A stretch of 64,000 nucleotides of DNA from Clostridiales bacterium (GTDB lineage: Bacteria; Bacillota; Clostridia; Christensenellales; CAG-138), in assembly GCA_019416935.1 (NCBI GenBank), contig DXWI01000002.1, positions 103,618-167,617 of the forward strand, given 5' to 3'. A program made the position numbers and the translations under genes. Below, piece by piece: positions 4,686 to 61,842 of this stretch. Position 1 is the first letter of the stretch; the number at the start of each line of letters is the position of its first letter. Under the pieces are notes generated by a model. It worked only from the letters and a program-made list of their open reading frames with translations. It searched no databases and was not told the origin of the DNA.

Positions 4686-5164
4686 TTTTCGTATACCCCC
4701 TTTGCAGCGACTGCCTCAATGGCCTCGACGATCTTCTTGTAGCCCGTGCAGCGGCAGAGGTTGCCGCTCATAGCGCAGGCGATGTCCTCCCGCGAGGGAT
4801 GCGGGTTCTCGCGCAGCAGCGCTTCCGCGCTCATGAGCATGCCCGGCGTGCAGAAGCCGCACTGGAACGCCATGTGCTCGATGAACGCTTCCTGCAGGGG
4901 AGAAAGCTTATCCCCATCGGCGAGTCCCTCCACGGTTTCGATGTGTTTGCCGTTCAGCTCCGGCGCAAGGATCAGGCACGCGTTGACGGCTTTGCCGTCC
5001 ATAATGACCGTGCACGCGCCGCACTCGCCCGCGCCGCAGCCCTCCTTCGTACCGGTCAGCGCGAGATCATTCCGCAGCACGGACAGGAGCGTACGGTTTG
5101 CGGGAACGAGCAATTCGATCGGTTCTCCGTTGACAAAAAACTTTACCCGGTATTCCATCGTCAT
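4682..5164 (-). CDS. (2Fe-2S)-binding small subunit of the xanthine dehydrogenase-family enzyme
   Basis: 160 aa. Plant-type ferredoxin motif CGAGECGACTV and second cluster motif CGFCTPG...CRCTGY. Confidence 0.9.
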   Translation of the reverse strand: MTMEYRVKFFVNGEPIELLVPANRTLLSVLRNDLALTGTKEGCGAGECGACTVIMDGKAVNACLILAPELNGKHIETVEGLADGDKLSPLQEAFIEHMAFQCGFCTPGMLMSAEALLRENPHPSREDIACAMSGNLCRCTGYKKIVEAIEAVAAKGVYEK

Positions 5165-6955: not shown

Positions 6956-7566
6956 GCGTCCCTCCTGTGCAGCAGCATCCGCTGGTAGTCGGCGGGCGTA
7001 TCGACGTCGATCTCGCAGCCTTCATCGTCCGTCAGCACATAGGCAATGCGGCCGGCCAGCGAGGCAAAGGCGCCGCGCAGCCCGCCCTCGCCCGCATAAC
7101 CCTCGATGGTTGCAAAGCAGCTCCGGTGCAGAAGGGGAGGATGCAGGCGGCGCATATCGCGGCTCGGAAAAACGAGCGATGCGCCGGTCTGTTCCATGCG
7201 GCGGATCAGGCGGGGCAGCAGCGTATACGGCACCATGGGCATATCCGCAGGCAGCAGGAACACCGCTTCGGCGTCGGAGACGGACGCCAGATCCGCAAGA
7301 CCGATCTGAATGGAGAGCAGCATGTCCGAAGTCGCGTACGCGCAGTTGGGGACAAAGCGCACCGGCAGGTGCGAGAGCGCGCGAACCAGCGCGTCGCCGT
7401 TTTTGCCGACAACCACCCAGACATCCTCGATGCCCGCATCAAAAAAAGTCTGTACCGTATGCTCGATCATTGGTTTGCCGCCGATGGGAAGAAGCGGTTT
7501 GAATGCGCCCATGCGCTCCGACAGGCCGGCGGCGGCGATCAGTCCTGCAGCCTTCATAGATAACAT
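6937..7566 (-). CDS. Molybdenum cofactor cytidylyltransferase (MocA/MobA-like NTP transferase)
   Basis: LIAAAGLSERMGAFKPLLPIGGKPMIEH is the canonical MobA-like N-terminus. Start trimmed to the ATG at 7566 (ATG at 7557 is also possible). Overlaps the downstream fusion gene by 19 nt. Confidence 0.7.
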   Translation of the reverse strand: MLSMKAAGLIAAAGLSERMGAFKPLLPIGGKPMIEHTVQTFFDAGIEDVWVVVGKNGDALVRALSHLPVRFVPNCAYATSDMLLSIQIGLADLASVSDAEAVFLLPADMPMVPYTLLPRLIRRMEQTGASLVFPSRDMRRLHPPLLHRSCFATIEGYAGEGGLRGAFASLAGRIAYVLTDDEGCEIDVDTPADYQRMLLHRRDACVAQH

Positions 7567-7796
7567 CCCTGCCGTTGGAAAAGATATTTTCTCTTTTTCA
7601 GAATGCCAGAGGCGCTTTGAAAAGTCAATAGCGTTATTCTGAATCGGATATAACGCAAAGTGCCCGTTTTTGCCGCGTTTCGTTATCCTCAATCGTAAAC
7701 AATGATGCGCCGGATGCCCGGTTTTGGGGCAATAAAATAGCGCCGCCGTTCACCGGCAGCGCATACAAACCGACCGTTGGCCGCGCAAAAATTTTT

Positions 7797-8141
7797 TCAG
7801 AATTCCGGGATCGCGTCCGGAGGGCAGTTCCAGCTGTTTCGGATTCTGTGATGCTCCAGCCCCGCGTAAAACGAGCTTTCGCGCACCTGCATGGCGCATT
7901 TCGGCCCCGCCTGGAAGGAACCGTCGTCCGCAACGGAACGGAAAGCGAGCAGCAGGCAGGCCTCCCTGTCACCATCCGAGACGCGCACAAATACCATGAC
8001 GCGGCCGTAGGCATCCCGCTCAAGCTCCGCCACCTCCAAAAAGGCCAGCGTCTCCCGCTCCCGCTCAAACAGAGCCGAAGCGAGCTTTTCGGCGGCTTCC
8101 CGTACCGCCGCGGTCGCTTCCGTACCGCCATAGGTCAGCAT
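7797..8141 (-). CDS. Hypothetical protein (114 aa)
   Basis: ORF trimmed to the ATG at 8141, which is preceded by a GGGGGG purine run. High-GC third positions. No recognisable motif. Confidence 0.4.
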   Translation of the reverse strand: MLTYGGTEATAAVREAAEKLASALFERERETLAFLEVAELERDAYGRVMVFVRVSDGDREACLLLAFRSVADDGSFQAGPKCAMQVRESSFYAGLEHHRIRNSWNCPPDAIPEF

Positions 8142-8200
8142 ACAACATCCCCCCGCTTTTTTTTGCAGTATAGCACAGGTGCAGCGGCAATGCAAACCGC

Positions 8201-8234
8201 GCGGCCATCCACGCGGAGCTCTCGGCCAAATAAA
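8201..8234. repeat. Copy 2 of the 34-bp direct repeat (orphan remnant of the nfnB-like 3' end)
   Basis: gcggccatccaCgcggagctctcggccaaataaa. The single difference is a synonymous His codon change (cat to cac). Upstream similarity to nfnB is lost. Confidence 0.9.
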
Positions 8235-8261
8235 ACAACGGTATTTTGAAAAGAGCAGAAA

Positions 8262-8289
8262 CGGGAAGCGGGCAATCGCCCGCTTCCCG
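8262..8289 (-). terminator. Strong GC hairpin, probably a terminator for the minus-strand repeat-locus gene (possibly bidirectional)
   Basis: 11-bp stem cgggaagcggg/cccgcttcccg with a 6-nt loop. The minus-strand 3' flank is tttctgctctttt. Confidence 0.6.
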
Positions 8290-8450
8290 TTCGTTTCAGA
8301 GATCGTCTGCGTCCTGAACCGGTTCGCCGCCATCCACCGGACAGCCGGTATAGCTTCCCTGTACGTCGGACAGGATGTCGTTGTTCCGGTCACGCCGTCC
8401 GGTTTTGGGCAGTTGTGCGGCCGCCCTGGCCGCGCGCTTTCTCTCTCCCA

Positions 8451-8606
8451 TCAGAACTGGTTCTGATTCTGGTTCTGGTTCTGCCGGTTGTTCTGCTGCT
8501 TCTGCTGGTTCTGCTTCTGCTGCTGATTCTGGTTCTGCCGGTTGTTCTGCTGTTTCTGCTGGTTCTGGTTCTGTTGGTACTGGTTGTTCTCCTCGTAAAA
8601 GCTCAC
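8451..8606 (-). CDS. Small Q/N-rich repeat protein (51 aa); reading frame uncertain (alternative is the E/P/A-rich frame 8296..8649)
   Basis: GGAAAGGAG at 8616-8624 lies 9 nt upstream of the GTG at 8606, in the frame giving VSFYEENNQYQQNQNQQKQQNNRQ... The competing frame has no visible RBS, but it has GC-rich third positions through to 8296. Confidence 0.3.
   Translation of the reverse strand: MSFYEENNQYQQNQNQQKQQNNRQNQNQQQKQNQQKQQNNRQNQNQNQNQF
8455..8600. repeat. Imperfect tandem repeat, 54-nt period (about 2.5 units)
   Basis: ggttctgccggttgttctgctg recurs at 8477-8498 and 8531-8552. The surrounding ctggttctg-type units make several frames on both strands open. Confidence 0.8.
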
Positions 8607-8819
8607 CTGTTTTCGCTCCTTTCCAAAGTATGTTTGCGGCAGACAGCACGGACTGTGGTCCGCCACGAAATTAGTTTGCCCTTGCGCCGTCGACTTTTGC
8701 GTGCCAGTTTTGAACATTTTTTGACGCTATTTTCCGCCGGTGCCGCTCGGCTGCGGTTGCGCATCGCCGGCGCACGGCGTATAATAAATAGAAAACTTTT
8801 TTGGAACGGGGGCTTTTTC

Positions 8820-10181
8820 ATGGAAAGCTTGGAAAGCGCGCATCATATTCATCTGATCGGCATCGGCGGCTGCAGCATGAGCGGTCTTGCGCGCATTTTG
8901 AAAGCACACGGGCATATGGTCACCGGCAGCGACCGGGAGCGCACGCAGTTTACAGACAGTTTGGACGCGGCAGCCATTCCCTATTCGGTTGGCCACACGG
9001 GCGCATATCTCGACGGCGCGGATCTTGTGATCTACTCCGCCGCGATCAAGCCGGATAACCCGGAGCGCGTCATTGCAGCGCAGCGGGGCATTCCGGAGCT
9101 TGAGCGCAGCGTGGCGCTGGGCCAGATCTCCTCCCGATTCCATGAGGTTGTCGCCATCGCCGGCTGTCATGGCAAGACTACCATCACCTCTATGCTCGCC
9201 GGCATCACTGTGGCGGCGCACGCGGATGCGACCATCCACGTCGGCGGCTATGTGGATGCGCTCGGCGGCGGCGTTCGGGTCGGCAGCCGCGACCTGTTCA
9301 TCACGGAGGCCTGCGAATATGTGGAGAGCTTTTTGACGCTTTCCCCGACCATTGCGCTCATCAGCAACATCGATAACGATCATCTGGACTACTTCCAATC
9401 CATGGAGAACATCGTCCGTGCTTTTGAAAAATTTTTGGACCGGCTGCCCGCCGACGGCACGTTCATCGGCTGTGCGGACGATCCGTTTGTACGCGCGCTG
9501 GTCGAAAAGAGCGCGCACCGCACGTTGACCTACGGGCTGACCGGCGGTGATTACTGCGCCGCGGACGTCGCTTATGACGCGGAGGGCAACCCGTCCTTTA
9601 CCGCCGTGCGCGGCGATGAAGCGCTCGGCCGCGTGCAGCTCGGCGTTCCCGGCACGCACAATGTTTTGAACGCGCTCGGTGCGCTCGCCGTGTCCGACCG
9701 GATCGGCGTCCCCTTCGATCTCTATTGTTCCGCCATCGCCTCGTTCCGCAACACGCGCCGCCGGTTTGAATTCTATGGAGAGCGCGACGGCATTCGCGTG
9801 TTTCATGACTATGGACACCATCCGAATGAGATCCGCGCTACGCTGGAAGCCGCCGCGCGCTTGCCGCACAAGCACCTCTACTGCGTGTTTCAGTGCAACA
9901 GCTATACGCGCGCGCGAACGCTGTTCACCGAGGGGGTCACCTGCTTTGCCGGCGCAGACGCCGTGCTCGTGCCGGACATCTATCCCGGTCGGGAGAAGGA
10001 TACGGGCGTCGTCCATGCGCGCGATATGGTAGCGGCCATCCAAGCCGCCGGCACCGCCGCCCACTATCTTCCCACGTTTGAGGAAATCCGCTGCTGGCTC
10101 GATGCGCACGGCGAGACCGGCGACGTCGTCGTGACCGTCGGCTCCGGCGATGTCTACCGCCAGACGAGGAAACTGCTTTGA
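8820..10181 (+). CDS. murC: UDP-N-acetylmuramate--L-alanine ligase
   Basis: MESLESAHHIHLIGIGGCSMSGLARIL... is the typical MurC N-terminus, with the Mur ligase P-loop AGCHGKTTITSM. The ORF track start at 8415 is an upstream extension through the repeat region. Confidence 0.9.
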   Translation: MESLESAHHIHLIGIGGCSMSGLARILKAHGHMVTGSDRERTQFTDSLDAAAIPYSVGHTGAYLDGADLVIYSAAIKPDNPERVIAAQRGIPELERSVALGQISSRFHEVVAIAGCHGKTTITSMLAGITVAAHADATIHVGGYVDALGGGVRVGSRDLFITEACEYVESFLTLSPTIALISNIDNDHLDYFQSMENIVRAFEKFLDRLPADGTFIGCADDPFVRALVEKSAHRTLTYGLTGGDYCAADVAYDAEGNPSFTAVRGDEALGRVQLGVPGTHNVLNALGALAVSDRIGVPFDLYCSAIASFRNTRRRFEFYGERDGIRVFHDYGHHPNEIRATLEAAARLPHKHLYCVFQCNSYTRARTLFTEGVTCFAGADAVLVPDIYPGREKDTGVVHARDMVAAIQAAGTAAHYLPTFEEIRCWLDAHGETGDVVVTVGSGDVYRQTRKLL

Positions 10182-13044: not shown

Positions 13045-13239
13045 TTAAATTTCCTGTTTGTCCAACCATTCATCAAAGGACTTTTTAGATATTCGTATTG
13101 AAGCACCTATACGAACGGATTTCACTTCACCTTTCTTAACAAATTCATAGGCTGCGGTACGGCTGATTCCAAGTAAGGTGGAAATTTCTTCTACTGTATA
13201 GGTGCGTTTTTCGCAGATGTGCTTTGGCATTTGTTCCAT
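13045..13239 (-). CDS. xis: Excisionase-family HTH DNA-binding protein
   Basis: 64 aa. YTVEEISTLLGISRTAAYEFVKKGEVKSVRIGASIRISKKSFDEWL is the typical excisionase/MerR-like HTH. Located directly upstream of int. Confidence 0.8.
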   Translation of the reverse strand: MEQMPKHICEKRTYTVEEISTLLGISRTAAYEFVKKGEVKSVRIGASIRISKKSFDEWLDKQEI

Positions 13240-13370
13240 TTGCCATGCCTCCTTTCTATGTTAATTTGCTGCCGCAATTCATCTGCTATATTTAGCATAC
13301 AGATAAATTGGTTAGGGCGCAAATGTGTCAAGTCGAATCATCTGTTTTTTAGTTGGTGCCATTCAAGATA

Positions 13371-13421
13371 AAGCGGCGGTCAAAATGGATTCTGCATAAA
13401 GGCAGAACAAGACCGCCGCTT
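13371..13421 (-). promoter_or_regulatory. Long stem-loop in the xis-int leader (candidate attenuator/terminator)
   Basis: 11-bp stem aagcggcggtc/gaccgccgctt enclosing an inner hairpin tctgc/gcaga. It lies between a promoter-like element at 13676-13704 and xis. Confidence 0.4.
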
Positions 13422-13675
13422 CCTCCATTTTTCTTGTATAATCACGCACACCTATTCGACACTACTCCCCGATGTGCAGGGCGACAACATAAACCGGCCT
13501 TACGGTCTGCATAGGAATCTCACCTCTCCCGGGTTCTCCGCGAGCTGCTCCCATTGCCTGCGACGCCATATACTTTTTTCAGTATGTACGCACGGACTGT
13601 GGCTAAACAGAAGTATCATTATCAGCAGGACAGGTCATGGCGAACTTCATGGAGCGCTCACTGTACTGCAAATGT

Positions 13676-48249: not shown

Positions 48250-51200
48250 TCACCTCGCTTCACCGACACATAGCGGCGATATTTCCTCCTGTTCTTCCGG
48301 CAGGGTATCCAGATTTTCCGGCTCTCGTTTGTCAATGCTTAACAGTGCATCGAGTGTGGCGAGCCGCTTCGTTTTTTCTGCAAGCTCCTGTTCCTGCTGA
48401 AAGGGTTTCTGAATCTCCAGCTTTGCATTTTCAAGCTGTGTATTTAACTCCTGTATGCTTTTGTTGCAGGTATCCAGACGCTCCGGCAATTTACTCAGTG
48501 CATTTTCCATGCGCTGTATATTGCCAAGCACATCTGCGCCAAGGTCTACGGTATGCGACGCCATACCTTTCATCGTCAAACGGAAGGTTTTTGCAACCGT
48601 GTCATAGTGCAAAAGCAGTGTGAATCCGCGATACATACCGATTTCCCTTTGCTCCGGGTTGGTCATGGACTTACAAATACCGATCAGCTCCGTACCGGCG
48701 TCCTTCTTTTCCGCATATTGCTGATCCTGCAAGGTCATTCCCGGAAAGTCGTCCGTTTTGTTTTGCCCGTATAACGCAATGTCGGCAGCATAATCCTGAG
48801 CCCGTTCCGTCATATAGCGGATTTCACTCGGGAAGTATTTGAGCACTTTATCTTCCAGCGCGTATTTCTGGCTCAGGTAGTTGGCTTTTACGAGTTTGAG
48901 CCGTGCAACTTCCACGTCAAGTGTCATCTTTTCCATGATATATGGATTGTCTACGGCAAGCGCCTTTACCTCTGCATAAGAAAGCGCCTGTTCGTCGATG
49001 TCCTCACAAGAGCGAACAGGCGTTTTGGAAGTCATGATTTGGCTGATAAATTTCTGTTTGTTTTCAATCGTTTGCCACATATAGGCGTCAAACGTACCTT
49101 TAGTCACATATCGGTATACCTCCACATGATTGTTTTCGTTTCCCTGCCGAATCATTCTGCCTTCGCGCTGTTCAATATCCGATGGCCTCCAGGGAATGTC
49201 CAGATGGTGCAAGGCAATCAGTTTGCGCTGCACATTCGTTCCTGCGCCCATCTTAAAGGTGCTGCCGATCAGTACCCGCACCTGTCCGGCGCGGACTTTG
49301 GAAAAGAGGGCGCTTTTCTGCACCTCGGTCTTTGCGTCATGGATAAAGGCAATCTCAGACTTGGGAATCCCTTGCTCCATGAGTCTTTCTTTCAAATCCG
49401 TATACACGTCCTGAAAGATTGGTGCTGCTTCCAGCTCGTTTCCGGCACTTTCTCCCGGATTCGCGGATTTTGGTGTAGACAGGTCGCAAAAGACAAGCTG
49501 CGTCAGCGCCTGTTCTCGCGTTCTTTCCCATACGGAGTAAATGTTTGCGGCGCAGATGTTGACTTTGCTGTTTTCATCATCGGGCAGCATACTGTTTACC
49601 AGCCGCTGTTCGAGTGCGAGTTTGCGCCCGTCATTTGTAATACGGAGCATATTGTCGATATGCGGATCCACATCACCGCTGCGCACTTTTTCTGCCCGGT
49701 CTGCAAGAGCCGATACCATATCTTTCTGATATCCAGACGGTTCAAGAGACACATTGATATACTCTGCTTCCGGTACGGGGAGATTCAGCATATCTGCGGT
49801 TTGAATGTCCGCGACCTCCTTGAACATGGAAATCAGCTCGGGCAGATTGTAGAACCGCGAAAACCGCGTTTTTGCCCGGTAACCCGTTCCCTCCGGCGCA
49901 AGCTCGATGGCTGTGACCGTCTCTCCGAAAGTGGAAGCCCATGCGTCAAAGTGCGTCAAATTTTTTGCCTTCAAAAGATCATATTGCAAATATCGCTGCA
50001 TGGTATACATCTCCGTCATGGAATTGCTGATAGGCGTTCCTGTTGCAAACACAACTCCTTTGCCGCCCGTCAGCTCGTCCATGTATCTGCATTTCATAAA
50101 CAGATCGCTGCTTTTTTGCGCTTCAGTCTGAGATAGTCCTGCCACATTGCGCATTTTTGTGACGAGAAACAGGTTCTTGTAGAAATGCGCCTCGTCCACA
50201 AACAATCTGTCTACGCCGAGTTCCTCAAAGGTGATGACGTCGTCTTTGCGGCTCTGGTCACTGAGTTTTTCCAGCTTCAGTTTCAAGTTTTTTCGGAGCT
50301 TCTCCATTTGCTTGATGGTGAAGCGCTCTGCCCGCTCCTGTTTCGCCTGGGCGATTCCCTGGGTGATTTCGTCGATCTGCTCTTGCAATATTGCCGCCTG
50401 TTTCTCCCTGCTCAACGGGATTTTTTCAAACTGAGAGTGCCCGATGATAACGGCGTCGTAGTCGCCCGTGGCGATTCTGGAGCAGAACCGCTTGCGATTG
50501 TGCGTTTCAAAGTCCCGCTTCGTCGCAACAAGGATATTTGCTGCCGGATAAAGCTGTAAGAACTCGCTTGCCCATTGTTCGGTTAAATGATTGGGAACAA
50601 CGAACAGGCTTTTTTCACAAAGGCCAAGCCGTTTACTCTCCATGGCAGCAGCGGTCATTTCAAAGGTTTTGCCTGCACCTACCACATGACCTAACAGGGT
50701 GTTGCCGCCGTACAATATCCTCGCCACGGCGTTTGTCTGGTGCTGCCGCAGCGTAATTTCGGGGTTCATGCCCACAAACCGAATATGGCTGCCGTCGTAT
50801 TCCCGGGGACGAATGGAGTTAAATTCCTCGTTATACAGTTTGGTAAGCAAATCGCGCCTCGCTGCGTCCTTCCAGATCCATTCGGCAAACTGGTCCTTGA
50901 TTGCCTGCTGCTTTTGCTGTGCAAGAATCGTTTCCTTTTTGTTCAGTACCCGCTGTTCATTTCCGTTGATATCCTGAACGGTATCAAACACACGGACGTC
51001 TTTGAGGTTCAGCGTTTCTTCGATGATCTTGTAGGCATTTACCCGTTTTGTCCCATAGGTGATATTGACTGCGACATTTTCGTAGTCGGCGTTTTTGTTC
51101 TCGATATTCCAGATTGCCGTCGGTCTGGAATAACGTACTTTGATCTTGTTTCTGGCGTAATAAGAAGGAGACAGGAGATCAAATATAAATTGCTGAACCG

Positions 51201-54200
51201 TCTCCACGGGAAGCCAGGTTGCGCCAAGCCGCACGTCGATCTCACTGGCGCTAAGATCTTTCGGCTGCACGCTTGTAAGGGCTTCCACATTGGCGGTGTA
51301 ATCTTCTGAATTTAGCGCCATGCTGCGCTTTGCCCATTCCAGCTTTTCGCGGACATTGCCCGAAAGATATTCATCGGCGGGTAGATATTTCTCCTGCTCT
51401 TTGCTGCCGTAACCATGCATGGGATTTAAGAAGATAGCCCCTTTTAGCTCATCGAAAAGCTGTTCTTCCGTCTTTCCGGTAAGCTCAATCATATATGCCA
51501 TATCCACTTTAGCCTTTTCACCAATGGACAGGGCAAGTGCTTCCGAAGCCGTATCGACCGACGTAATAGTGCTTTGCTGCCGGATCGTGCGCTTTGTAAA
51601 CATATCCGCTTTGCGCTTCAGATTTCCATACTCGTCCAGTTCCTCGAGCGAACAGAGCAGCGGATAGCTGCTGTCGTCTGAAAAAGCCAGCCTGTTAGCG
51701 CGGGAATTGAGCAATCCGTACTGCTTCGTATAACCGTCGTACAGGGTGTTTAAGTTTTTCTGTTCCCGCTCTATGACCTCGTCCGGATAGCCTTCCATCT
51801 GGTATTCGATCAAGCGCCTTGTACAGTCTCGGATCTCCATCATGCCTTTCACGCGGTTCTCGGCGGTGAGCGACATTTCTATCCTTTTCATGCGGCTGTT
51901 TTCGCGGTAATAGATATTGCCGTCTGCAAGAGTGAATGAGAAATTCCGTACAGACGGATCGGCGGGAATACTTTCTTCTGTTTCTTCGGCGAATTCTTCC
52001 TGCTGGTCACGGTCGTATTCCGTGATGTTGCCATGTATATTGGAAATGGCGTCCGCAAGCTGATCGGAAAGTTCTGCACCGGCAAGCGGCTTCACAGTAC
52101 ATTCCTGTTTGCCGTACTGCGTGCTTTCCTCGGTCAGTTCACCCAGCACCATGTCGGGATTGTCCACAAAGTATTGGTTTATGGCATATCCCTGTTCCGT
52201 TTTACCAAGATGTACCCATGCAGGCTCGATAGCAACGGGGCGGTCACGCTTTTGTAGAAACAAAATGTCGGTTACGACGCCTGTACCTGCGTTGGCAAGA
52301 AAGGCATTGTTTGGCAAGCGGATTGCTCCCAGAAGTTCTGCCCGCTCGGCAATGTACTTGCGAACCGCAGGATTCTTTTTGTCCATCGTACCCGATGAGG
52401 TAATGAACGCCACCACGCCGCCGGGGCGCACCTTGTCCAAAGTTTTGGCAAAAAAGTAGTCGTGAATTAAAAAACGGTGTTTGTCATATCGTTTATCTGC
52501 GACGCCATAATCGCCGAACGGAACATTGCCGATGGCGAGATCGAAAAAGCTGTCTGGCAGATTGGTTGCTTCAAAACCTTCAATCGCAATGTTTGCCGTC
52601 TGATAAAGCTGCCGTGCGATTCTGCCCGTGATCGGGTCAAGTTCCACACCGTAGAGCTTGCTGTTCTTCATACTTTCGGGCAGTAAGCCAAAGAAATTGC
52701 CGATCCCGCAGGACGGCTCTAGCACATTGCCCGTGGTGAAACCCATGTTCTCAATGCACTTGTAAATCGCCCTTATGACCGTGGGACTGGTATAATGCGC
52801 GTTGAGCGTGGAAGCTCTTGCCGCCTCGTATTCTTCGGGGGATAAAGCTGTGTACAGCTCCATAAACTCAGATGCCCATGCAGCGTTGTCCTCGTCAAAG
52901 GCTTGAGGAATGCCGCCCCAGCCCACATAGCGGGATAAAACCTCCTGTTCCTCGGGGGTTGCAAGGCGGTTTCCCAGCTCAATGGTCTGCAAGGTGTTGA
53001 TCGCGTCCATATTCATGCGAAACTTGGCTTTTGCACCGCCGTGACCGAGGTTGTCGTCCGTGATATGGAAATTGTGTTTTAATGGTTTTTCCTGATCGGG
53101 CGCTGTTTTCAGCGTTCTAATTTCTATATCAAAGGGAAGATTGTTTTTTTCGGCAGGGTAAAAAGCGACGGTGGTTTCGAGTGTAGATGGTTGTTCATGA
53201 TTGCTTTCTTCTGAAAACTTATCTATCGCCAGTATGCCATCAAATGCTTCAATTTCTTCCCGTGTTTCAGCAACAGCTTCCGTGCCATCGTCATAGCAGA
53301 GGTAAACGATTTCACCCATATCAAACATTTCAAGAGCCTCAGTTTTATCCAGCAGCTCCATGTCGGCAAATCTGTCGCTTTCTTCTTCGGGCAGTTTCTC
53401 TTGAAGATTTGGCTCGGTCACAGTTCGATGGGTCATGGTGGGATAAAAGGCTGCGTTGCGCTCGTCCTGTTCCAACAAATGATGGAATGTCTCGCGATTT
53501 TCCGCCCGAAAAACAGGGTACAGGAGCGCGGGGTCAAGGAGCTGCACCTCGCTGTCCGTAATACGGGTAATCTGAAAAGCGGTACCTTCAAGGTAGACGG
53601 TATCTCCTACGGCGTACACATAAGGGGTTTCCCCTTCAGAGCGTTGAGGCGCTTTCGCCGGCTGCTCTGCGTTTTCCACGATCAGATGGTCGTTCTGTGG
53701 ATTTTCCCGCAAACGCCTCTCGAACACATCTCGTGGCATATCTTCCGACAGCAGGGGGTATTTCGGGTCGGATAGCGTAACGGTATTCTCGTCGTATCCA
53801 AGTACGGTATAACTTTGCGCGCCAAGCTGTACTTCGTCGCCAAGAGAATAGCGGTATTGCGCGTCCTTACGTTTTTCGTCCATAGCAGCGGCAGCAGCCT
53901 GCAAGGCTTCCCGTGCTGCTGCTTCTTCGCGCATGACAGCACGGCGCTGCGCTTCTTCCTTTTCATATGCAGGCAAACTTGCCTTTTCTTTTTCGGACAG
54001 GTAACGATCAAGCGCAATCAGTTCTGAAATACGGGAATGTACGGCGTTCCACCGAAACAGCATTTTATGGCGAAAACCACTATCCGAAAACTCAATCCCT
54101 TTTCCGTCGTGGCCAACAAAACCGCTGCTACCGTCCAGATAAGTGTGGGAATGACCACCGATCCCGTATTCTTTTTTCAAAAATTGAATGGCGCTCTCTT

Positions 54201-55563
54201 TGCTTGGCTGCGTTTGATAGAAAGCATAGATGCGATACTTACCATGGGAAAATCCGCTTCCCAAGCACAATTCGTTATCAAAATCCGCTTGAGAGACAGA
54301 AAAGACGGAGGATGTTTTGTCCTCCGTCTTTTCAAGTAGGGAAAGCTGTTCCTTTTCTGTGGGAAAAAGCGAGGTTAGCTGTAGATCACCTCTTTGAGAA
54401 CGATCTCCTCCGCTGTGTGCAGCAGATTGTTCATCAGCCCCACCCATTTCATCTGATCGTGGGCTTTCAGTTCCTCCGTCACTCCCTCGGCTTTCGCCAT
54501 GTGTTTCATGATCTGTTCGACCTGTGTCCTCGCTAATCTGTCCGTCTCCAGAAGATGTTCGTCCAGCTTCCCCGTCAGCAGCAGTTCGTTGTAAGTCCCC
54601 TTGCGGTGCTCTTTGAGAAACGCTTTGCGCATTCTGCCGTATTTCCCGATCAGTTCCGTTGGCTGTTCGTCCATCTCCAGATTCGGAATCAGATAATCTC
54701 CGTTCTGCCTGTATGTCAGTTCCATGTTCACGGCTCCTTTCATGCTTTGTATTTTCATCTATATTTTGCAAAACGTGGTTTTGATTTGCAAGTGTACGAC
54801 TTCTTTCAAACGCAATGCTTCTCACGCTGCGTTCGATCTGCCGCAATACCATCTCGGAAATATCCGCCGTTGCCGCGCCAAGCTGGGAGATTGTTGCAGG
54901 CGTGTTAAAATCCATGACCGCTATGAAATCCTGTTTTTCAAAGTATTCCCGCGGGGAAAGCCCAAGACGTCTCATGACCACATAGGCGGCGCTTTTCTCC
55001 AACATTTCCTCAAACCATACGGAGATATTAAACTCGTCATATTCTTCCAGATTGCTTCCGGAAAGGGATTGCAAAAGCGCACTCTTGTAATCTGCGCTGT
55101 TATCCTGGACTGCATTATGAATCACCCCGTTCAGCTGATCGGAAAAAGGCAGCTCCGCATACTCTTCAATCTCACCGAATCTGTTCGTGAGTTCTTCCAG
55201 AATCCTATCTTTCTGTTCCTCTCCAAGCTGCCAGAGCGCAAACGGAATATTACTCCGCGTATGGGTATCTGATACATCAAAGACGTAACGCAGTCGCGTC
55301 CTATCACCGGAATCATCGATCAAGGCGATTCCTTTCGCGCCTTTGTTCACCCAGCGTTTGAACTGGGGCGAGTTCCATAGTTCGATGGGGGCACAGGCAG
55401 TGGCGTCCGGTCGCTGTGCGTAAATCATGACCTGCTCGTGCCACGGGTACTTGTACAGCCACGCCGCAGAATCTAAAAAGCTTAACCACTCATCGGTAGA
55501 ATGGGTGAGCCTGTTCATGGTATCATGCGATAGCGCAGATACCTTTTGCAGTTTTGTCGCCAA
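48250..55563 (-). CDS. Polyvalent conjugative-element protein: ArdC-N-like domain, low-complexity linker, N6-adenine DNA methyltransferase, SNF2/DEAD-like helicase
   Basis: The frame is open continuously to 55617. The proposed start is the TTG at 55563, 8 nt after a GGAGG that directly follows the upstream stop. MTase motifs VLEPSCGIGNFFG (I) and GNVPFGDY (IV). Helicase motifs GHVVGAGKTFEM (I) and FVDEAHFYKN (II). Confidence 0.8.
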   Translation of the reverse strand: MATKLQKVSALSHDTMNRLTHSTDEWLSFLDSAAWLYKYPWHEQVMIYAQRPDATACAPIELWNSPQFKRWVNKGAKGIALIDDSGDRTRLRYVFDVSDTHTRSNIPFALWQLGEEQKDRILEELTNRFGEIEEYAELPFSDQLNGVIHNAVQDNSADYKSALLQSLSGSNLEEYDEFNISVWFEEMLEKSAAYVVMRRLGLSPREYFEKQDFIAVMDFNTPATISQLGAATADISEMVLRQIERSVRSIAFERSRTLANQNHVLQNIDENTKHERSREHGTDIQAERRLSDSESGDGRTANGTDREIRQNAQSVSQRAPQGDLQRTAADGEAGRTSSGDGQISEDTGRTDHETHGESRGSDGGTESPRSDEMGGADEQSAAHSGGDRSQRGDLQLTSLFPTEKEQLSLLEKTEDKTSSVFSVSQADFDNELCLGSGFSHGKYRIYAFYQTQPSKESAIQFLKKEYGIGGHSHTYLDGSSGFVGHDGKGIEFSDSGFRHKMLFRWNAVHSRISELIALDRYLSEKEKASLPAYEKEEAQRRAVMREEAAAREALQAAAAAMDEKRKDAQYRYSLGDEVQLGAQSYTVLGYDENTVTLSDPKYPLLSEDMPRDVFERRLRENPQNDHLIVENAEQPAKAPQRSEGETPYVYAVGDTVYLEGTAFQITRITDSEVQLLDPALLYPVFRAENRETFHHLLEQDERNAAFYPTMTHRTVTEPNLQEKLPEEESDRFADMELLDKTEALEMFDMGEIVYLCYDDGTEAVAETREEIEAFDGILAIDKFSEESNHEQPSTLETTVAFYPAEKNNLPFDIEIRTLKTAPDQEKPLKHNFHITDDNLGHGGAKAKFRMNMDAINTLQTIELGNRLATPEEQEVLSRYVGWGGIPQAFDEDNAAWASEFMELYTALSPEEYEAARASTLNAHYTSPTVIRAIYKCIENMGFTTGNVLEPSCGIGNFFGLLPESMKNSKLYGVELDPITGRIARQLYQTANIAIEGFEATNLPDSFFDLAIGNVPFGDYGVADKRYDKHRFLIHDYFFAKTLDKVRPGGVVAFITSSGTMDKKNPAVRKYIAERAELLGAIRLPNNAFLANAGTGVVTDILFLQKRDRPVAIEPAWVHLGKTEQGYAINQYFVDNPDMVLGELTEESTQYGKQECTVKPLAGAELSDQLADAISNIHGNITEYDRDQQEEFAEETEESIPADPSVRNFSFTLADGNIYYRENSRMKRIEMSLTAENRVKGMMEIRDCTRRLIEYQMEGYPDEVIEREQKNLNTLYDGYTKQYGLLNSRANRLAFSDDSSYPLLCSLEELDEYGNLKRKADMFTKRTIRQQSTITSVDTASEALALSIGEKAKVDMAYMIELTGKTEEQLFDELKGAIFLNPMHGYGSKEQEKYLPADEYLSGNVREKLEWAKRSMALNSEDYTANVEALTSVQPKDLSASEIDVRLGATWLPVETVQQFIFDLLSPSYYARNKIKVRYSRPTAIWNIENKNADYENVAVNITYGTKRVNAYKIIEETLNLKDVRVFDTVQDINGNEQRVLNKKETILAQQKQQAIKDQFAEWIWKDAARRDLLTKLYNEEFNSIRPREYDGSHIRFVGMNPEITLRQHQTNAVARILYGGNTLLGHVVGAGKTFEMTAAAMESKRLGLCEKSLFVVPNHLTEQWASEFLQLYPAANILVATKRDFETHNRKRFCSRIATGDYDAVIIGHSQFEKIPLSREKQAAILQEQIDEITQGIAQAKQERAERFTIKQMEKLRKNLKLKLEKLSDQSRKDDVITFEELGVDRLFVDEAHFYKNLFLVTKMRNVAGLSQTEAQKSSDLFMKCRYMDELTGGKGVVFATGTPISNSMTEMYTMQRYLQYDLLKAKNLTHFDAWASTFGETVTAIELAPEGTGYRAKTRFSRFYNLPELISMFKEVADIQTADMLNLPVPEAEYINVSLEPSGYQKDMVSALADRAEKVRSGDVDPHIDNMLRITNDGRKLALEQRLVNSMLPDDENSKVNICAANIYSVWERTREQALTQLVFCDLSTPKSANPGESAGNELEAAPIFQDVYTDLKERLMEQGIPKSEIAFIHDAKTEVQKSALFSKVRAGQVRVLIGSTFKMGAGTNVQRKLIALHHLDIPWRPSDIEQREGRMIRQGNENNHVEVYRYVTKGTFDAYMWQTIENKQKFISQIMTSKTPVRSCEDIDEQALSYAEVKALAVDNPYIMEKMTLDVEVARLKLVKANYLSQKYALEDKVLKYFPSEIRYMTERAQDYAADIALYGQNKTDDFPGMTLQDQQYAEKKDAGTELIGICKSMTNPEQREIGMYRGFTLLLHYDTVAKTFRLTMKGMASHTVDLGADVLGNIQRMENALSKLPERLDTCNKSIQELNTQLENAKLEIQKPFQQEQELAEKTKRLATLDALLSIDKREPENLDTLPEEQEEISPLCVGEAR
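54375..54725 (-). CDS. tnpV: TnpV-family protein gene nested out of frame within the polyvalent ORF
   Basis: AAAGGAG lies 8 nt upstream of the ATG at 54725. The 116-aa product MELTYRQNGDYLIPNL...IGKYGRMRKAFLKEHRKGTYNELLLTGKLDEHL...AEGVTEELKAHDQMKWVGLMNN...EIVLKEVIYS follows the TnpV (Tn4451-type) pattern end to end. Confidence 0.65.
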   Translation of the reverse strand: MELTYRQNGDYLIPNLEMDEQPTELIGKYGRMRKAFLKEHRKGTYNELLLTGKLDEHLLETDRLARTQVEQIMKHMAKAEGVTEELKAHDQMKWVGLMNNLLHTAEEIVLKEVIYS

Positions 55564-55576
55564 TTCTATCGCCTCC

Positions 55577-56167
55577 TTATCGTTCAAACTGATTCTGTTT
55601 CTTTTTTTGCTCTTCAAACAGGCGCTCTTTTGCCCAGCCCGGAATACGCTCCGGTTTTATTACGCCGAAAATATCCTCTCGGTTATAACGCATTTCACGG
55701 TTATCGTACACAGCCCTTACATAAACGGCTCTGCCGCGTGCAGATTCGCTGCACCCAAAGCCACTCTCCGCTCTGCAAAGCTGATAGTCCGCTGTCTGTT
55801 TGTCCCTTTGCAGAATTTCAGATCGGATAACAATGAGCTTGCCTGCATAATGTTCGTGTTCGCTGCCGGGAATACAATCATCATAGGAAAGTGTTTCAAA
55901 AATGCCGCGTTCCTGTTGTATGGAAAATGATTTTTCCGCTTCCGTTCGAACACGCTCACCAAACTCCTTCAAGGCTTCTGCATAGCTGTCTGTGGCAATG
56001 CAGTTATGATAATGCTCAATGCCGAAAATGGGGTCAAGACTGCAAAAACCGACCATATATCGTAACTCTGCCTTTTCGTCTGCACCGAACACAATCTCTT
56101 TTCCATTGATCATTAAGGCAGATTCTATTTCATAAGAATCTGCCGTGCGTTTTTCGTTTTGATTCAT
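55577..56167 (-). CDS. Hypothetical ICE protein (196 aa)
   Basis: ORF trimmed to the ATG at 56167, just after the upstream stop. No motif recognised. Confidence 0.5.
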   Translation of the reverse strand: MNQNEKRTADSYEIESALMINGKEIVFGADEKAELRYMVGFCSLDPIFGIEHYHNCIATDSYAEALKEFGERVRTEAEKSFSIQQERGIFETLSYDDCIPGSEHEHYAGKLIVIRSEILQRDKQTADYQLCRAESGFGCSESARGRAVYVRAVYDNREMRYNREDIFGVIKPERIPGWAKERLFEEQKKKQNQFER

Positions 56168-57249: not shown

Positions 57250-60200
57250 TTATTCCTCCTCATTCTTTTTCTTTTTGAGCGCCCTTTTCGCCGCAATTAC
57301 GCGCCAGGCAATTACGCCTACGCCTAGCAGCGTAATGCCAATGGCAATCGGCACGTCGTATTTATCCGAGTCGATCCCCAGCTTGACCGACGGCGTGTTG
57401 GTTATGGTGGTTTCCAAGGGGACTTCAAAGGTGTAATCTTCGGTCAGTATCACTTTGTCGGCTGGATTGGGGAAGAAGCCGTTTGGTACGGTGGATTCCT
57501 CGATGTAGACCTCGGCAGCAAGCGGCAAGCCCAGCACGGTAATCTCACCTTTGTCGTCCACCATGATTTCCGTCACGCTGCCATTATCGTCACGCATATA
57601 CCAGCCGTTTTCGAGTTTCGTAAATCTGAGCGTTTCAAAGCCGAGGAATGCTTTTGTCTTAAAGGTAAATCCCGCGTCTGTAAGCGGCTGTCTGGTTTCT
57701 GCATGTACCTTTCTTACCTTGAGCGCCGTGGGGCTATTGGCAATGTTAGCTCGGTAGGGGTTTCCCGTCCCGTTTTCCCTGGTCACGGTCATGGTAAAGT
57801 TTTCTGCACCCACAAAGCCTACAGGCGTTTCTTCAACAAGCGTGTAGTTTCCGACTTTGAGGTAACGTATCTCCGCTTTACCGTTCTCATCGACAGCGAA
57901 CCTTGTGCTGCCTTCCTTTTCGTCCGGCACAAAATAGCCATTGCCGGTGGATTTCACCTTGACGGGGTTCCCGTCCTCATCTTGCAATGAGAACACAACG
58001 CCGCCCATGGGGCTGCTGTCATAGGCATTCTTTTTCTCAACAAAAACACTGATCGGCTCGTCGGTGATTTCCGTGTAGCCCGTAATATTGCCGTACTCGT
58101 CAATTTCAAAGAAAAACTCTGAAGTATTGACGGCAAATCCGTCCGGGCTGTAGCTTTCTACAAATCTGTACTTCCTGTCTGCGGGCAGCTCGTGAATGAT
58201 CACACAGCCTTCCATATTGGTTTCGCCCTCAAATACAATCTCGCCTGTCACGTCGTCATAGATGGTGATGCCTGCGCCGGGTACTGCTTCGCCCGTGGCC
58301 ACATCGGTCTTTTCAATCGTTACTTCCGTCGGTTCGTCCTCAAAGGTAAACTTCACAACCTCATTGCTGCTTACTTTTAAGGTAAAGTGTACTTCTTCCT
58401 TTGAGAGGCAGAAGCCCTCCGGGGCAACCTTTTCACGCAGGATAAACTCGCGCTGGATGGGGAGCTCGCCGCTTGTGCCTACGCCATTTTCGCCAACTTC
58501 AATCAGCCCGACTACCGATTTTGTCTCCGCGTCCACGATCTCAAACACCGCTCCGGCAAGCGTCCGCTCGGTATCACGGGAGTCCACCTTGATAACCCGG
58601 ATACGCTTTGTAATGAGTTCATTAAAAACAGGGGTTACAGCATGAGCGTCGTCCACGATGATTTCATCGGCTGCGTTTTTACTCGTCACATCAACCGGAT
58701 AGATATTGGAGGACAGCGCATATCCTGCCTTGGGCGCTGCCAGTTCTTTTAGATACATCTCGCAAAGCGGGAGGTCTGCGCTGCTCTGTGCTTTTCCGTC
58801 CTTGCCGGTGGTCAGAATATCAAGCAGTACATTTTCGGGAATCGTTCCAACCGCAGCTTTGGTATATAGCCCAAATACAAATCCTGTGCCGTAATCGGTG
58901 TAGATTGCACCTGTATTCGGATCAAAATGTTCCGCATTCTTTTGCAGCTCCACCGCAGCCTTTTGCCGCTGGTTTTCTCTTGTCAGCGTTTCGGTTACAA
59001 CGGCGGTGTGCTGGTCTGCATAGGAGAGAATCACTTCGTATTCGGCGGTATCGAGAACAAACCCCGATAAGGTCTTTTTCTCTTTTACCACATATTTGCC
59101 GAGGTACAGTTTATCTGATGTTGCCACGCCGCTCTGATCGGTGGTGAGTTCACAAACCTTTTCACCCGCTTTGTGGTACACCTTGCCCGGCACACCGATG
59201 TTCTCGGTGGCAAATACCTCGTATACGACGCCCTTCAAGCCTTTTAATTCATAGGTGGGAATGTACTTTGTTCCGTATTTGGTGTTCTCCGTCGTATAGC
59301 CCGTCAGAATTTCTCCCTTTTTCTCAATGGAGATCGTCCCTTTAACGGGCGTATCCTTCATCGCGACAGTGACGGTTCCGTTCTCTGAATTAGCCTCACT
59401 GACCGTAAACGTGACGGGTTCTCCGTTTAAGAGGTAGGGTTCGGGCGCAGATATTTCGATGAGTTTGAATGTGCCTGTAGGGAGCGTTCCGGGCAGATAC
59501 AGCGTCCCGCTGGAATCCGTTTGAAATTCGGACAGGGTTTGCGGCTGCGGGTAGAGGAGATCGAAAGTGACAGGCTCGCCATTACTGTTCTCAATACGGA
59601 AAGTCGTTCCGGCAACAGGGATCGTGTGACCGCTCTCCGCGTCCTGCTTTACAATCCGCACCATCATCTCAATACTCTTATCCTCTAAGATATACGAGTA
59701 GGTCTTTTCGTTCTCGCAGACAAATACCTCAAACGGCTCTACCAGCTTGTAGCCTTCATTTGCCTCGCTTCTCACCTCAGAAATTACATACAATCCGTAA
59801 GGGAGAAGCGTGGATATGCCGCGTCCGTTTTCTCCGGTTGTAATCGTATCAAAGAGTTCGCCGGAGGATTTTAGGCGCACCTCAAACTGCACACCTGAAA
59901 GCGGTGGTTTTATGTCGGGATCGTCCTCGCTGCTGTCAAGCTCCCTCTCGCCAAACTTGGTGAGTTCAATCTTGCCCTTTATAACCTCGTCTTCCACGGT
60001 GGCGTTTTCCGTCACAACCGAGATATTCTGCCCGCCATAGGAGAGAGTAACAGAAACAGGCGAAGAGTTGAGAAGATAGCCTGTAGGAGCAGGAGAAATT
60101 TCCTGCACAGAATATGTTCCCAAAGGCAATTCCTTTGATGTTACGACGCGGCTTCCGAGAGCATAAAGCGTATACACTACGTTGCCATCCTTATCCCGTA

Positions 60201-61770
60201 TCTCGTACTTTGCACCAAAAAGCGAGGCGTCGCCCTGGGGTGTGCCGCCCGTTTCCGCGTCTGCTTTGGAGACGATGATTTTTCCTGTTTGCGGCGTATT
60301 AGGGATCGTCGCTTCATCGTAGACAATTGCAGTCGTCTGTCCGGCGTAGGAGAGCGTAACGGGATATTCCTGTTTGTTCAGTACAAAACCCGTGCTTGCC
60401 TGCCGTTCCTTTACGACATAGCTTCCCAGCTTGACAGGCGAGGAAATGCCTTTGCCGGACGAATCGATGGTAATGGACGTGACCACTTTTCCGTTCTGAT
60501 ACACGTCAAAGACGCTGCCCGCAAGGGAATACTCTCCCATATCCGGGTTGGCATTGGTTTTTGTCACCCGAATCTGCCCCATGGCTTCTTTGTTGGAAGC
60601 GGTCACCGTCACGGTCTGCGCCGCCTGTACGTTGACGGGATATACGATATCCGAAAGGATATATGGTTCTATCGTTGATATTTCCTTGAGGTAGAAGGTG
60701 GACAGTTCCAGATCGCCCGACACGGCTTTTCCGTTGCTGCCCGTCGTAAGTTTTGCCACTAGATTTTTGCAGGCTGCGTCGCTGTATATGCCAAACACCA
60801 CGCCGGAGAGCAGTTTACCGTCCTCGCTCTTTTTTAAGAGTTCGATTTTCCCGTAAGCGGGTGTGGTCATGCGGAGTACGCCGTCCGTTGCAGGTGCGTA
60901 GTTGCCAGAAGTATAGGTGATGACTTTCTGGTAGTCTCCGTTGTCCGGTGCATACCAGAACAGATTCGCAGTCACGCGGTTGTCATAGCCTGTGGCGTCC
61001 AGTCGTATGCTCTGGTTACCGTATTTTTTGGGTACTTTAATCGTCAGTGTATCGCCGTTCTTTCCGGTAAAGCCTGTGACTACCGTACCCGAGGGAAGAG
61101 AGGATTTATCTATGGTATAACCCCCCGAACAGTTTTGGAGCGTCACCCTCGTGCTACCCATAAAGTATTCTCCCGAAACCGTAAGCTCCATAGACGCGGG
61201 CGAAAACGAAACGCTGTGAGAGATGAGCTGCTGGTTTCGCGCCATCTGTAATAGCTCGTCCGCCCAGTTGAGCAGGCTTTGGTAGCCGGACTTTGCGCGG
61301 ATGAGATTGGGATTTTCCCTTCGGTTGGTAAAATTCCATTGGGAGTCCGCGCCTTCCTCGGACAGCCAGAACCGCAGTGCGTTTGCCGTAGCCTGCCGCG
61401 CCTGGTCTGCTGTAAATCCGTTTGTCGTGCAGGGATAGCCGTTCTCCAAAATGATTTGGATGCCGCGCACAGTACGAGTGGAGTAGCTGTTAAGCGGGTC
61501 GATCTCACTGTAACCTACGCCGTGGGGGTTGCCGAGTTTGTGCTGGATACAGTAGGCGATCTGTCCTGTCTCCAATATGGTATGTTTGGGTGTGTTTAGG
61601 TCAACCCACTTGCCATCGGCATTGTAATACTCAAAATAGTCAAAGCCTTCTGAGTTAAACTGCGAGTCGATGGTCACTCTTGTGGCTGCCGAGGCTGTCA
61701 TGGGCAAAAGGGACAGTACCGCAAGCAGGCACAAAAACAGCGCCACAGGGCGCTTCAGTCGTTGCTTCAT
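57250..61770 (-). CDS. Giant surface adhesin: signal peptide, N-terminal thioester-like domain, at least 11 Cna-B/SpaA-type repeats, C-terminal TM anchor
   Basis: Signal peptide MKQRLKRPVALFLCLLAVLSLLPMTASA. A YCIQ motif occurs in the N-terminal domain. The G-x-Y-x-[LVI]-x-E...P-x-G[YF] module recurs (LGTYSVQEISPAPTGY, GKYVVKEKKTLSGF, GNYTLVEETPVGF and others). C-terminus IAIGITLLGVGVIAWRVIAAKRALKKKK. Confidence 0.8.
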   Translation of the reverse strand: MKQRLKRPVALFLCLLAVLSLLPMTASAATRVTIDSQFNSEGFDYFEYYNADGKWVDLNTPKHTILETGQIAYCIQHKLGNPHGVGYSEIDPLNSYSTRTVRGIQIILENGYPCTTNGFTADQARQATANALRFWLSEEGADSQWNFTNRRENPNLIRAKSGYQSLLNWADELLQMARNQQLISHSVSFSPASMELTVSGEYFMGSTRVTLQNCSGGYTIDKSSLPSGTVVTGFTGKNGDTLTIKVPKKYGNQSIRLDATGYDNRVTANLFWYAPDNGDYQKVITYTSGNYAPATDGVLRMTTPAYGKIELLKKSEDGKLLSGVVFGIYSDAACKNLVAKLTTGSNGKAVSGDLELSTFYLKEISTIEPYILSDIVYPVNVQAAQTVTVTASNKEAMGQIRVTKTNANPDMGEYSLAGSVFDVYQNGKVVTSITIDSSGKGISSPVKLGSYVVKERQASTGFVLNKQEYPVTLSYAGQTTAIVYDEATIPNTPQTGKIIVSKADAETGGTPQGDASLFGAKYEIRDKDGNVVYTLYALGSRVVTSKELPLGTYSVQEISPAPTGYLLNSSPVSVTLSYGGQNISVVTENATVEDEVIKGKIELTKFGERELDSSEDDPDIKPPLSGVQFEVRLKSSGELFDTITTGENGRGISTLLPYGLYVISEVRSEANEGYKLVEPFEVFVCENEKTYSYILEDKSIEMMVRIVKQDAESGHTIPVAGTTFRIENSNGEPVTFDLLYPQPQTLSEFQTDSSGTLYLPGTLPTGTFKLIEISAPEPYLLNGEPVTFTVSEANSENGTVTVAMKDTPVKGTISIEKKGEILTGYTTENTKYGTKYIPTYELKGLKGVVYEVFATENIGVPGKVYHKAGEKVCELTTDQSGVATSDKLYLGKYVVKEKKTLSGFVLDTAEYEVILSYADQHTAVVTETLTRENQRQKAAVELQKNAEHFDPNTGAIYTDYGTGFVFGLYTKAAVGTIPENVLLDILTTGKDGKAQSSADLPLCEMYLKELAAPKAGYALSSNIYPVDVTSKNAADEIIVDDAHAVTPVFNELITKRIRVIKVDSRDTERTLAGAVFEIVDAETKSVVGLIEVGENGVGTSGELPIQREFILREKVAPEGFCLSKEEVHFTLKVSSNEVVKFTFEDEPTEVTIEKTDVATGEAVPGAGITIYDDVTGEIVFEGETNMEGCVIIHELPADRKYRFVESYSPDGFAVNTSEFFFEIDEYGNITGYTEITDEPISVFVEKKNAYDSSPMGGVVFSLQDEDGNPVKVKSTGNGYFVPDEKEGSTRFAVDENGKAEIRYLKVGNYTLVEETPVGFVGAENFTMTVTRENGTGNPYRANIANSPTALKVRKVHAETRQPLTDAGFTFKTKAFLGFETLRFTKLENGWYMRDDNGSVTEIMVDDKGEITVLGLPLAAEVYIEESTVPNGFFPNPADKVILTEDYTFEVPLETTITNTPSVKLGIDSDKYDVPIAIGITLLGVGVIAWRVIAAKRALKKKKNEEE

Positions 61771-61842
61771 TTGTGAAACCTCCTTTGTTTTTTGCATAAG
61801 AAAAGCGCCGGATTGCTCCGACGCTTCTTTTGTTCATAGTTG

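Follow-up and report, generated by a model that had tools for sequence, protein, structure and literature searches.

The DNA examined here is a 64,000-nucleotide stretch of a Clostridiales bacterium genome (contig DXWI01000002.1, positions 103,618–167,617; the window hereafter), whose minus strand carries a giant (7.3-kb) polyvalent gene with a second gene, tnpV, nested inside it one base out of frame. The maximal open reading frame (ORF) of the giant gene, 48250..55617, spans 2,455 codons, in keeping with the roughly 2,450 reported by an initial inspection of the letters (the sequence-only reading). Its start is likely TTG 55563, with AAGGAGG at 55577..55571, because homologues begin MATKLQ. 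The nested ORF (54375..54758, minus strand, 127 codons) occupies the giant gene's +1 frame. It holds a complete tnpV unit—Shine–Dalgarno sequence, ATG, 116 codons, stop, and a GC-rich hairpin with a T-tract—that lies exactly between an ArdC-like N-terminal domain and the next domain of the host protein (Table 1).

The nested product matches the TnpV family of Pfam (PF14198) across profile positions 1–111 of 111 (E = 3.6e-43, 146.5 bits against a cut-off of 27), and also phrog_24764, a PHROG of unknown function (E = 7e-37). At 116 amino acids in a conjugative-element neighbourhood, it has the size (~110–125 amino acids) and mobile-element setting of that family. ATG 54725 is the likely start, rather than the end of the ORF at 54758, because homologues and a database entry use it (116 amino acids). 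An AlphaFold2 (AF2) model of TnpV contains an N-terminal β-hairpin and helices (predicted local distance difference test score, pLDDT, 80.9). Over the same bases the host frame encodes a G/S/D/E/R-rich peptide with no Pfam match, joining the N-terminal domain to the next one. The anatomy given by the sequence-only reading thus stands: a second same-strand ORF shifted by one base, an AAAGGAG ribosome-binding site 8 nucleotides before ATG 54725 (here 54741..54734), a full-length TnpV product and a low-complexity linker in the host frame.

Table 1 Features of the giant gene and the nested tnpV (window coordinates)
Feature	Coordinates	Strand	Details
tnpV coding sequence (likely start)	54375..54725	−	116 amino acids plus TAA; +1 frame relative to giant gene; 351 nucleotides
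tnpV Shine–Dalgarno	54734..54741	−	GAAAGGAG; 8 nucleotides before ATG 54725; host frame reads E-R-S
Host-frame linker	54373..54738	−	~122 codons, disordered-type, stop-free; same bases as tnpV
Terminator-like element	54296..54332	−	AAAA-GACGGAGGA-caaaaca-TCCTCCGTC-TTTTCTGT; −14.6 kcal/mol; 47 nucleotides past tnpV stop
Giant polyvalent gene (likely start)	48250..55563	−	2,437 amino acids: ArdC-like N-domain, linker, N6-methylase region, SNF2/ResIII helicase
N-terminal domain, putatively ArdC-like by fold	54739..55563	−	~275 amino acids; AF2 pLDDT 93.8; fold search
DNA methyltransferase region	52321..52791	−	Pfam Eco57I below gathering score; PADLOC MTase_II and orphan-methylase models
SNF2/ResIII helicase core and Helicase_C	49141..50757	−	Pfam SNF2-rel_dom, ResIII, Helicase_C; DrmD-like matches

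Scanning one genome per species with the N-terminal 556 residues of the giant protein gave 80 loci at 35–59% identity, mostly from Clostridia; these share ancestry and their elements move horizontally, so counts of loci are not counts of independent events. In the homologue comparison that the sequence-only reading had proposed, tblastn recovered a full-length TnpV frame in all 80 loci (40–71% identity), always +1 to the host frame and in the same place. The host frame passes through tnpV as an ORF of 2,000–2,770 codons wherever the contig permits, and the third frame closes within a few codons. Both frames are therefore open and conserved in divergent relatives, beyond chance (quantified below). 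The nested gene also keeps initiation signals of its own: AAAGGAG occurs in 68/79 loci, the 8-nucleotide spacer in 68/79 and ATG in 78/79, and in 19/79 the TnpV frame is closed by a stop 12 or fewer codons ahead of the ATG (minimum 1). Complete genomes and finished plasmids are among the sampled loci with the two-frame layout.

Four loci are exceptions. In L010 (Lutispora thermophila), a single host-frame TGA (6895..6897), from a TnpV-synonymous Pro codon CCT, splits the giant ORF into ORFs of 291 and 2,063 amino acids with TnpV intact—a natural version of a host-frame-stop mutant that is synonymous in TnpV. The element of L052 is cut off just after tnpV, both frames are broken in L066, and L009 ends at a contig edge. 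The pattern extends to Bacilli through the most distant homologues (23–31% N-domain identity), giant genes on plasmids of C. perfringens, S. suis, C. botulinum (pCDC3875), E. faecalis (pMP8-1) and Listeria innocua (pLIS40). Each of these five has a sole long +1-frame ORF (115–151 codons), which sits at the tnpV position, matches the TnpV hidden Markov model (E = 4e-24 to 4e-11) and has a Shine–Dalgarno sequence and an ATG.

An open host frame is not what tnpV would be expected to leave behind. When the TnpV protein is held fixed and its codons are redrawn among synonyms at the frequencies used locally in the giant gene, the host frame stays stop-free with a probability of 1e-4 in the window and a median probability of 3e-3 across loci; the observed frame is open in 78/79 loci, and the third frame contains 11.6 stops on average. 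Where the next TnpV codon starts with AA, AG or GA, a wobble T would put the host frame at risk, and none of the 2,619 such junctions (0/2619) is preceded by one. Five stand-alone tnpV genes served as controls (from Pusillibacter, C. coli, a Salmonella IncHI2 plasmid, an S. gallolyticus plasmid and a second copy in locus L035) and have 3–14 stops in the equivalent (−1) frame. The judgement of the sequence-only reading that a double open frame is unlikely by chance is borne out by these figures.

Composition follows the same direction. The linker consists of 89% disorder-type residues across loci, and its hydrophobic fraction is 0.111 versus the 0.181 expected under stop-free synonymous recoding, falling below expectation in 62/78 loci. 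A linker motif, ERS..GTDLQ.ERRLSDS..., recurs in homologues, as the sequence-only reading had suggested of such proteins. Its conservation is a by-product of TnpV residues and the Shine–Dalgarno sequence (host 'ERS' is GAAAGGAG).

Selection on the two frames was compared in 28 independent close pairs by an OLGenie-style count (N, non-synonymous; S, synonymous; TnpV frame first, host frame second). The TnpV frame is under purifying selection (dNN/dSN 0.25, dNS/dSS 0.20), and amino-acid identity in the overlapping host frame evolves neutrally (dNN/dNS 1.05, dSN/dSS 0.86). A test in both frames had been suggested by the sequence-only reading; constraint was found for TnpV (0.20–0.25), not for the residues of the linker (0.86–1.05). 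The flanking host-only domains in the same pairs give dN/dS values of 0.18 and 0.28. Constraint on TnpV thus equals that on the giant protein's globular domains, and linker residues drift freely. Variability at TnpV codon positions 1, 2 and 3 is 0.347, 0.309 and 0.472 (3>1>2), the pattern of coding in that frame, and in the overlap the host frame diverges in amino acids just as much as the non-coding third frame does (0.637 and 0.632, respectively). The host-frame linker is selected just for stop avoidance and hydrophilic composition.

Codon usage bears on the relative age of the frames, by a criterion taken from viral overprinting (PMC3744397). Relative synonymous codon usage of the flanks is mirrored in the TnpV frame (r = 0.71) but not in the host frame of the overlap (r = −0.30), which by this criterion makes TnpV the older frame. 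In a neighbour-joining TnpV tree, stand-alone and nested copies interleave, with resolution too weak to order the two states.

Beyond the tnpV stop, still within the giant ORF, a GC-rich hairpin is directly followed by a T-tract, the form of an intrinsic terminator. An energy-based scan places such a site no more than 230 nucleotides after tnpV in 58/79 loci, versus 0.048 per 230 nucleotides elsewhere in the same ORFs, and most of the loci it missed carry a hairpin farther downstream. This detector replaced a stricter one that needed perfect stems, which returned 27/79 sites and missed the window's own hairpin; a general promoter and terminator scan of the window did not report the hairpin either, possibly because A–T pairs lengthen the stem into the T-tract. 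Among 21 hairpins, chosen for pairing and hence giving a biased count, 95.7% of cells pair, 6/10 pairs are changed on both sides and 0/500 shuffles attain the observed values. The compensatory changes fall partly at host-synonymous positions (for example, GCA...TCT versus GCG...TCC). Run over 1.09 Mb, a covariance model trained on these hairpins returned strong hits just downstream of tnpV in ~70 loci, many of them outside the training set; its match in the window is 54295..54333 (E = 1.2e-10). Rfam gave no family, the sole match being a sub-threshold, miRNA-like one to the hairpin.

The structure is kept even in loci that encode another peptide there (EEAVEEAFPASLF in the L016 clade; also L057, L068 and L013). 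Among the plasmids, hairpin and T-tract are clear in Listeria, C. perfringens and S. suis, whereas C. botulinum and E. faecalis have weaker versions. Two loci have two hairpins each, L057 (~7246..7283 and ~7636..7674) and L089 (~4355..4384 and ~4738..4776): the first lies right after tnpV and the second ~400 nucleotides on, at the SAFS motif of the next domain, with extra coding sequence between them. The hairpin is a selected RNA structure, most likely a partial intrinsic terminator or attenuator.

Taking anatomy, conservation and selection signatures together, we consider the locus very probably a genuine and ancient case of one gene nested in another on the same strand of a Firmicutes conjugative element, in which the alternative frame of an older tnpV serves as a disordered linker and TnpV is made by internal initiation. 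Two of the options raised by the sequence-only reading, an overlapping gene pair and a tnpV whose shifted frame was recruited as an interdomain linker, are combined here, with comparative and selection evidence for both. We infer translation of the two frames, internal initiation and terminator function from sequence. TnpV, the older and sequence-constrained frame, would most likely be produced by ordinary internal initiation on the giant messenger RNA; this is the simple reading because TnpV-frame stops upstream leave a frameshift almost no room. Ribosomes arriving from the giant-gene start would read the same bases one position earlier and make a hydrophilic, disordered tether, which would have to stay stop-free and poor in hydrophobic residues for the ArdC-like domain to remain fused to the methylase–helicase body. 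The hairpin would terminate a fraction of transcripts after tnpV, full-length ones arising by read-through, and, by analogy with other conjugation operons, processive antitermination is a plausible gate for full-length expression.

Several points weigh against this interpretation. Purifying selection on the host-frame amino-acid sequence was not detected in the overlap (28 pairs), and the case that the linker is translated would come just from stop avoidance, composition and the downstream part's having no conserved start. TnpV has no fold match in the PDB and no NCBIfam or PADLOC family. The shared ancestry and horizontal movement of the loci reduce the weight of their number, as the choice of hairpins for pairing does for covariation. 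A terminator inside an ORF would leave costly non-stop messenger RNAs for the host frame. Finally, where extra sequence follows tnpV, the main hairpin stays beside the conserved start of the next domain ('AE.EK.SAFS.SQ'; 'SAFS.SQ.DID'), and the hairpin may therefore belong to this domain boundary rather than to tnpV.

A further proposal, which we hold tentatively and think somewhat doubtful, is that the unit of Shine–Dalgarno sequence, tnpV and hairpin acts as a switch, built into the polyvalent gene, that governs its expression. The translated intragenic terminator would stop most transcription after tnpV, making TnpV constitutive. The costly methylase–helicase body would be made only if a host-frame ribosome closely trails the polymerase, such that no hairpin forms, or if antitermination acts during transfer. 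The need to translate through the terminator would be what has held the two genes interlocked from a time before the Clostridia and Bacilli elements separated, and TnpV may act together with the giant protein.

Frameshift-dependent expression, the third option of the sequence-only reading, fares worse than the nested pair. A programmed +1 shift from the host into the TnpV frame would yield an ArdC-like/TnpV fusion, besides or instead of free TnpV, with the internal Shine–Dalgarno sequence as stimulator. Internal sequences of this kind stimulate frameshifting in prfB and dnaX, and fusion-type proteins do exist in the database. The mechanism is nonetheless improbable: the Shine–Dalgarno sequence and ATG are conserved, with canonical 8-nucleotide spacing in 68/79 loci, TnpV-frame stops 1–12 codons before the ATG in 19/79 leave almost no space for a shift site, and the upstream sequences showed no obvious shared slippery motif, for which no formal search was made. 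One fusion protein traces to a fragmented assembly. We therefore set aside the two fusions, P0003 and P0107, as frameshift evidence, since indels explain them best and the P0107 contig has a fragmented giant gene.

That TnpV alone is translated, with the ArdC-like part and the helicase as separate products and the open host frame without a role in protein, is quite improbable. Neutral evolution of host-frame amino acids would suit this account, as would a terminator-like hairpin after tnpV like that of stand-alone genes. It leaves unexplained a host frame that is stop-free in 78/79 loci at P ~3e-3 each, the 0/2619 wobble T count and the compositional selection against hydrophobic residues; moreover, no methionine is conserved among homologues at the start of the downstream part of the giant protein.

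The converse, that the giant protein alone is translated and the TnpV frame is an unexpressed relic of a captured gene, we regard as highly improbable, even though some RefSeq records annotate just the helicase here. A relic would not be expected to show dN/dS values (0.20–0.25) equal to those of the flanking domains, codon-position variability that follows the TnpV frame (3>1>2), or a full-length frame, Shine–Dalgarno sequence, spacing and ATG conserved down to 23–31% N-domain identity. An assembly or sequencing indel that merged three genes (ArdC-like, tnpV and helicase) into one ORF has next to no probability: P0003 and P0107 are indeed in-frame N-domain/TnpV fusions, the latter from a contig with a fragmented giant gene, but the two-frame layout recurs in 78/79 loci, complete genomes and finished plasmids included, and stand-alone tnpV genes behave differently.

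The arrangement can be set beside several known ones. One parallel is comS in srfAB of Bacillus subtilis, a 46-codon gene of narrow distribution whose frame is the younger. Both are small, out-of-frame, same-strand genes with their own ribosome-binding site inside a very large multidomain Firmicute gene, and both comS/srfAB products come from one messenger RNA. tnpV differs in its length (116 codons), in belonging to a large Pfam family with stand-alone members, in being apparently the older frame, in a nesting that spans Clostridia and Bacilli and in the terminator-like hairpin that follows inside the host ORF. In overprinted pairs of phages (lambda Rz/Rz1; phiX174 E in D and B in A), novelty lies with the nested gene. 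Like tnpV, that gene is wholly contained in the other, occupies the +1 frame and has its own start, and the two frames are unequally constrained; here it is the frame of the long gene that would be novel, it is of low complexity and used just as a linker, and the pair resides on a conjugative element of cellular genomes.

Stand-alone TnpV genes of Tn4451-type mobilizable transposons have the same PF14198 protein and the same unit of Shine–Dalgarno sequence (AAAGGAG), ORF (~115 codons) and comparable terminator hairpin. They differ from the nested copies in the 3–14 stops of their −1 frame and in their neighbours, which are serine recombinase, Mob or resistance genes. Papers mentioning TnpV present it as a stand-alone gene, for which an Xis-like role has been postulated. 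The giant protein itself resembles the polyvalent proteins of Iyer et al. 2017 (PMC5512222) in joining an ArdC-like module to a methylase–helicase dyad on a conjugative element; a nested gene is not part of that description, and the words TnpV, overlapping, linker, frameshift and terminator do not occur in its text. Internal terminators in Gram-positive conjugation operons are overcome by processive antitermination (PMC8955417, PMC8191782). The present locus likewise has a terminator-like hairpin inside a long conjugative transcription unit, with the difference that the hairpin lies within an ORF that would be translated; six words denoting intragenic or intergenic position are all absent from the review PMC8955417. 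No antitermination system was identified in the window, where no search aimed at one was made.

Long same-strand nested genes are considered nearly absent in bacteria, and gene callers forbid them; in one preprint, co-directional overlaps of >60 bp are said to be nearly absent from cellular genomes (bioRxiv 10.1101/724807). Here the overlap is 351 nucleotides and conserved, with a known protein family supplying the constrained frame and the giant protein apparently borrowing the other as a linker. The nesting accounts for the otherwise puzzling conserved linker motif, a shadow of TnpV and its Shine–Dalgarno sequence, and connects the uncharacterized TnpV with the module that serves establishment and anti-restriction in conjugative elements. 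The locus could also serve as a natural model for internal initiation, for termination within genes and for the origin of disordered linkers by overprinting.

Nesting explains, too, why these loci are annotated inconsistently. The sequence-only reading had raised the possibility that the nested frame is widely conserved and unannotated; the first held in 80/80 loci and the second did not, as NCBI names many such ORFs 'TnpV protein' (for example, WP_249320055.1, WP_243127745.1 and WP_339362176.1). Of the nesting itself, the searchable literature, papers on overlapping genes included, yielded no description. Some records hold the helicase only, some TnpV only, and some spurious antisense ORFs with truncated giant genes. 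The giant protein of F. prausnitzii (WP_113993121.1) and a nested TnpV (WP_242983515.1) appear to lie on one contig, both listing a longest contig of 69.5 kb. On the window's own contig, a metagenome gene caller reported tnpV and two antisense ORFs and cut the giant gene to 1,894 amino acids.

Long antisense ORFs (117–189 amino acids) cover tnpV and the linker at 53967..54536, 54555..54908 and 54724..55272 (plus strand) in the window and at 6752..7231 (minus strand) in L010; RefSeq lists one such ORF of Cohnella as a hypothetical protein. Such ORFs are probably a side effect of a sense strand rich in purines.

The domain content of the giant protein was assessed by fold and by profile. Its first 250 residues have a confidently predicted fold (AF2 pLDDT 93.8), for which the best PDB match is ArdC of plasmid R388 (6sna_A), with probability 1.0, E = 5.8e-3 and a template-modelling (TM) score of 0.45. 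Distant plasmid homologues of the domain carry the NCBI name 'ArdC-like ssDNA-binding'. No Pfam match was obtained at E up to 1, and a PDB-sequence profile search gave no ArdC match. The 'ArdC-N-like' label of the sequence-only reading thus finds a weak fold match and the names of distant homologues on its side and empty sequence searches against it, and we call the domain ArdC-like tentatively, from predicted structure and these names. With a putative ArdC-like fold, a methylase and an SNF2 helicase in one polypeptide in a conjugative setting, the protein has the composition of a polyvalent protein.

Genes for ParB, DUF6809, a DUF3991/Toprim primase, DpnD-PcfM, a NikA-like protein, a relaxase and a SpaA-type surface protein surround the giant gene; among these, ParB, the Toprim primase, the NikA-like protein, the relaxase and the SpaA-type protein mark the window as part of a conjugative element. 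A 1,515-amino-acid ORF with SpaA/bMG3-type domains lies at 57250..61797 (minus strand).

In the L035 locus, a second, stand-alone, 5′-truncated tnpV (13127..13465) directly follows the giant-gene stop and has 3 stops in its −1 frame; its protein and the stretch compared downstream of it are identical to those of the tnpV before tet(O/W/32/O) on S. gallolyticus pSGG1. On a Monoglobus plasmid (L086), the host frame has a stop after ~49 codons (~7160..7306) and the remaining frame is open for 2,193 codons; PLSDB lists just a 49-amino-acid hypothetical protein and TnpV there. On Listeria monocytogenes pLM1-2cUG1 (L094), the giant gene (6962..9710) is annotated as a 500-amino-acid ArdC-like coding sequence that still covers the tnpV region. 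Short Listeria 'ArdC-like' genes were considered as natural unfused variants and rejected, given that an IS6 transposase gene ~0.6 kb downstream in this one record suggests truncation by insertion. Most Listeria matches bear the same ArdC-like name.

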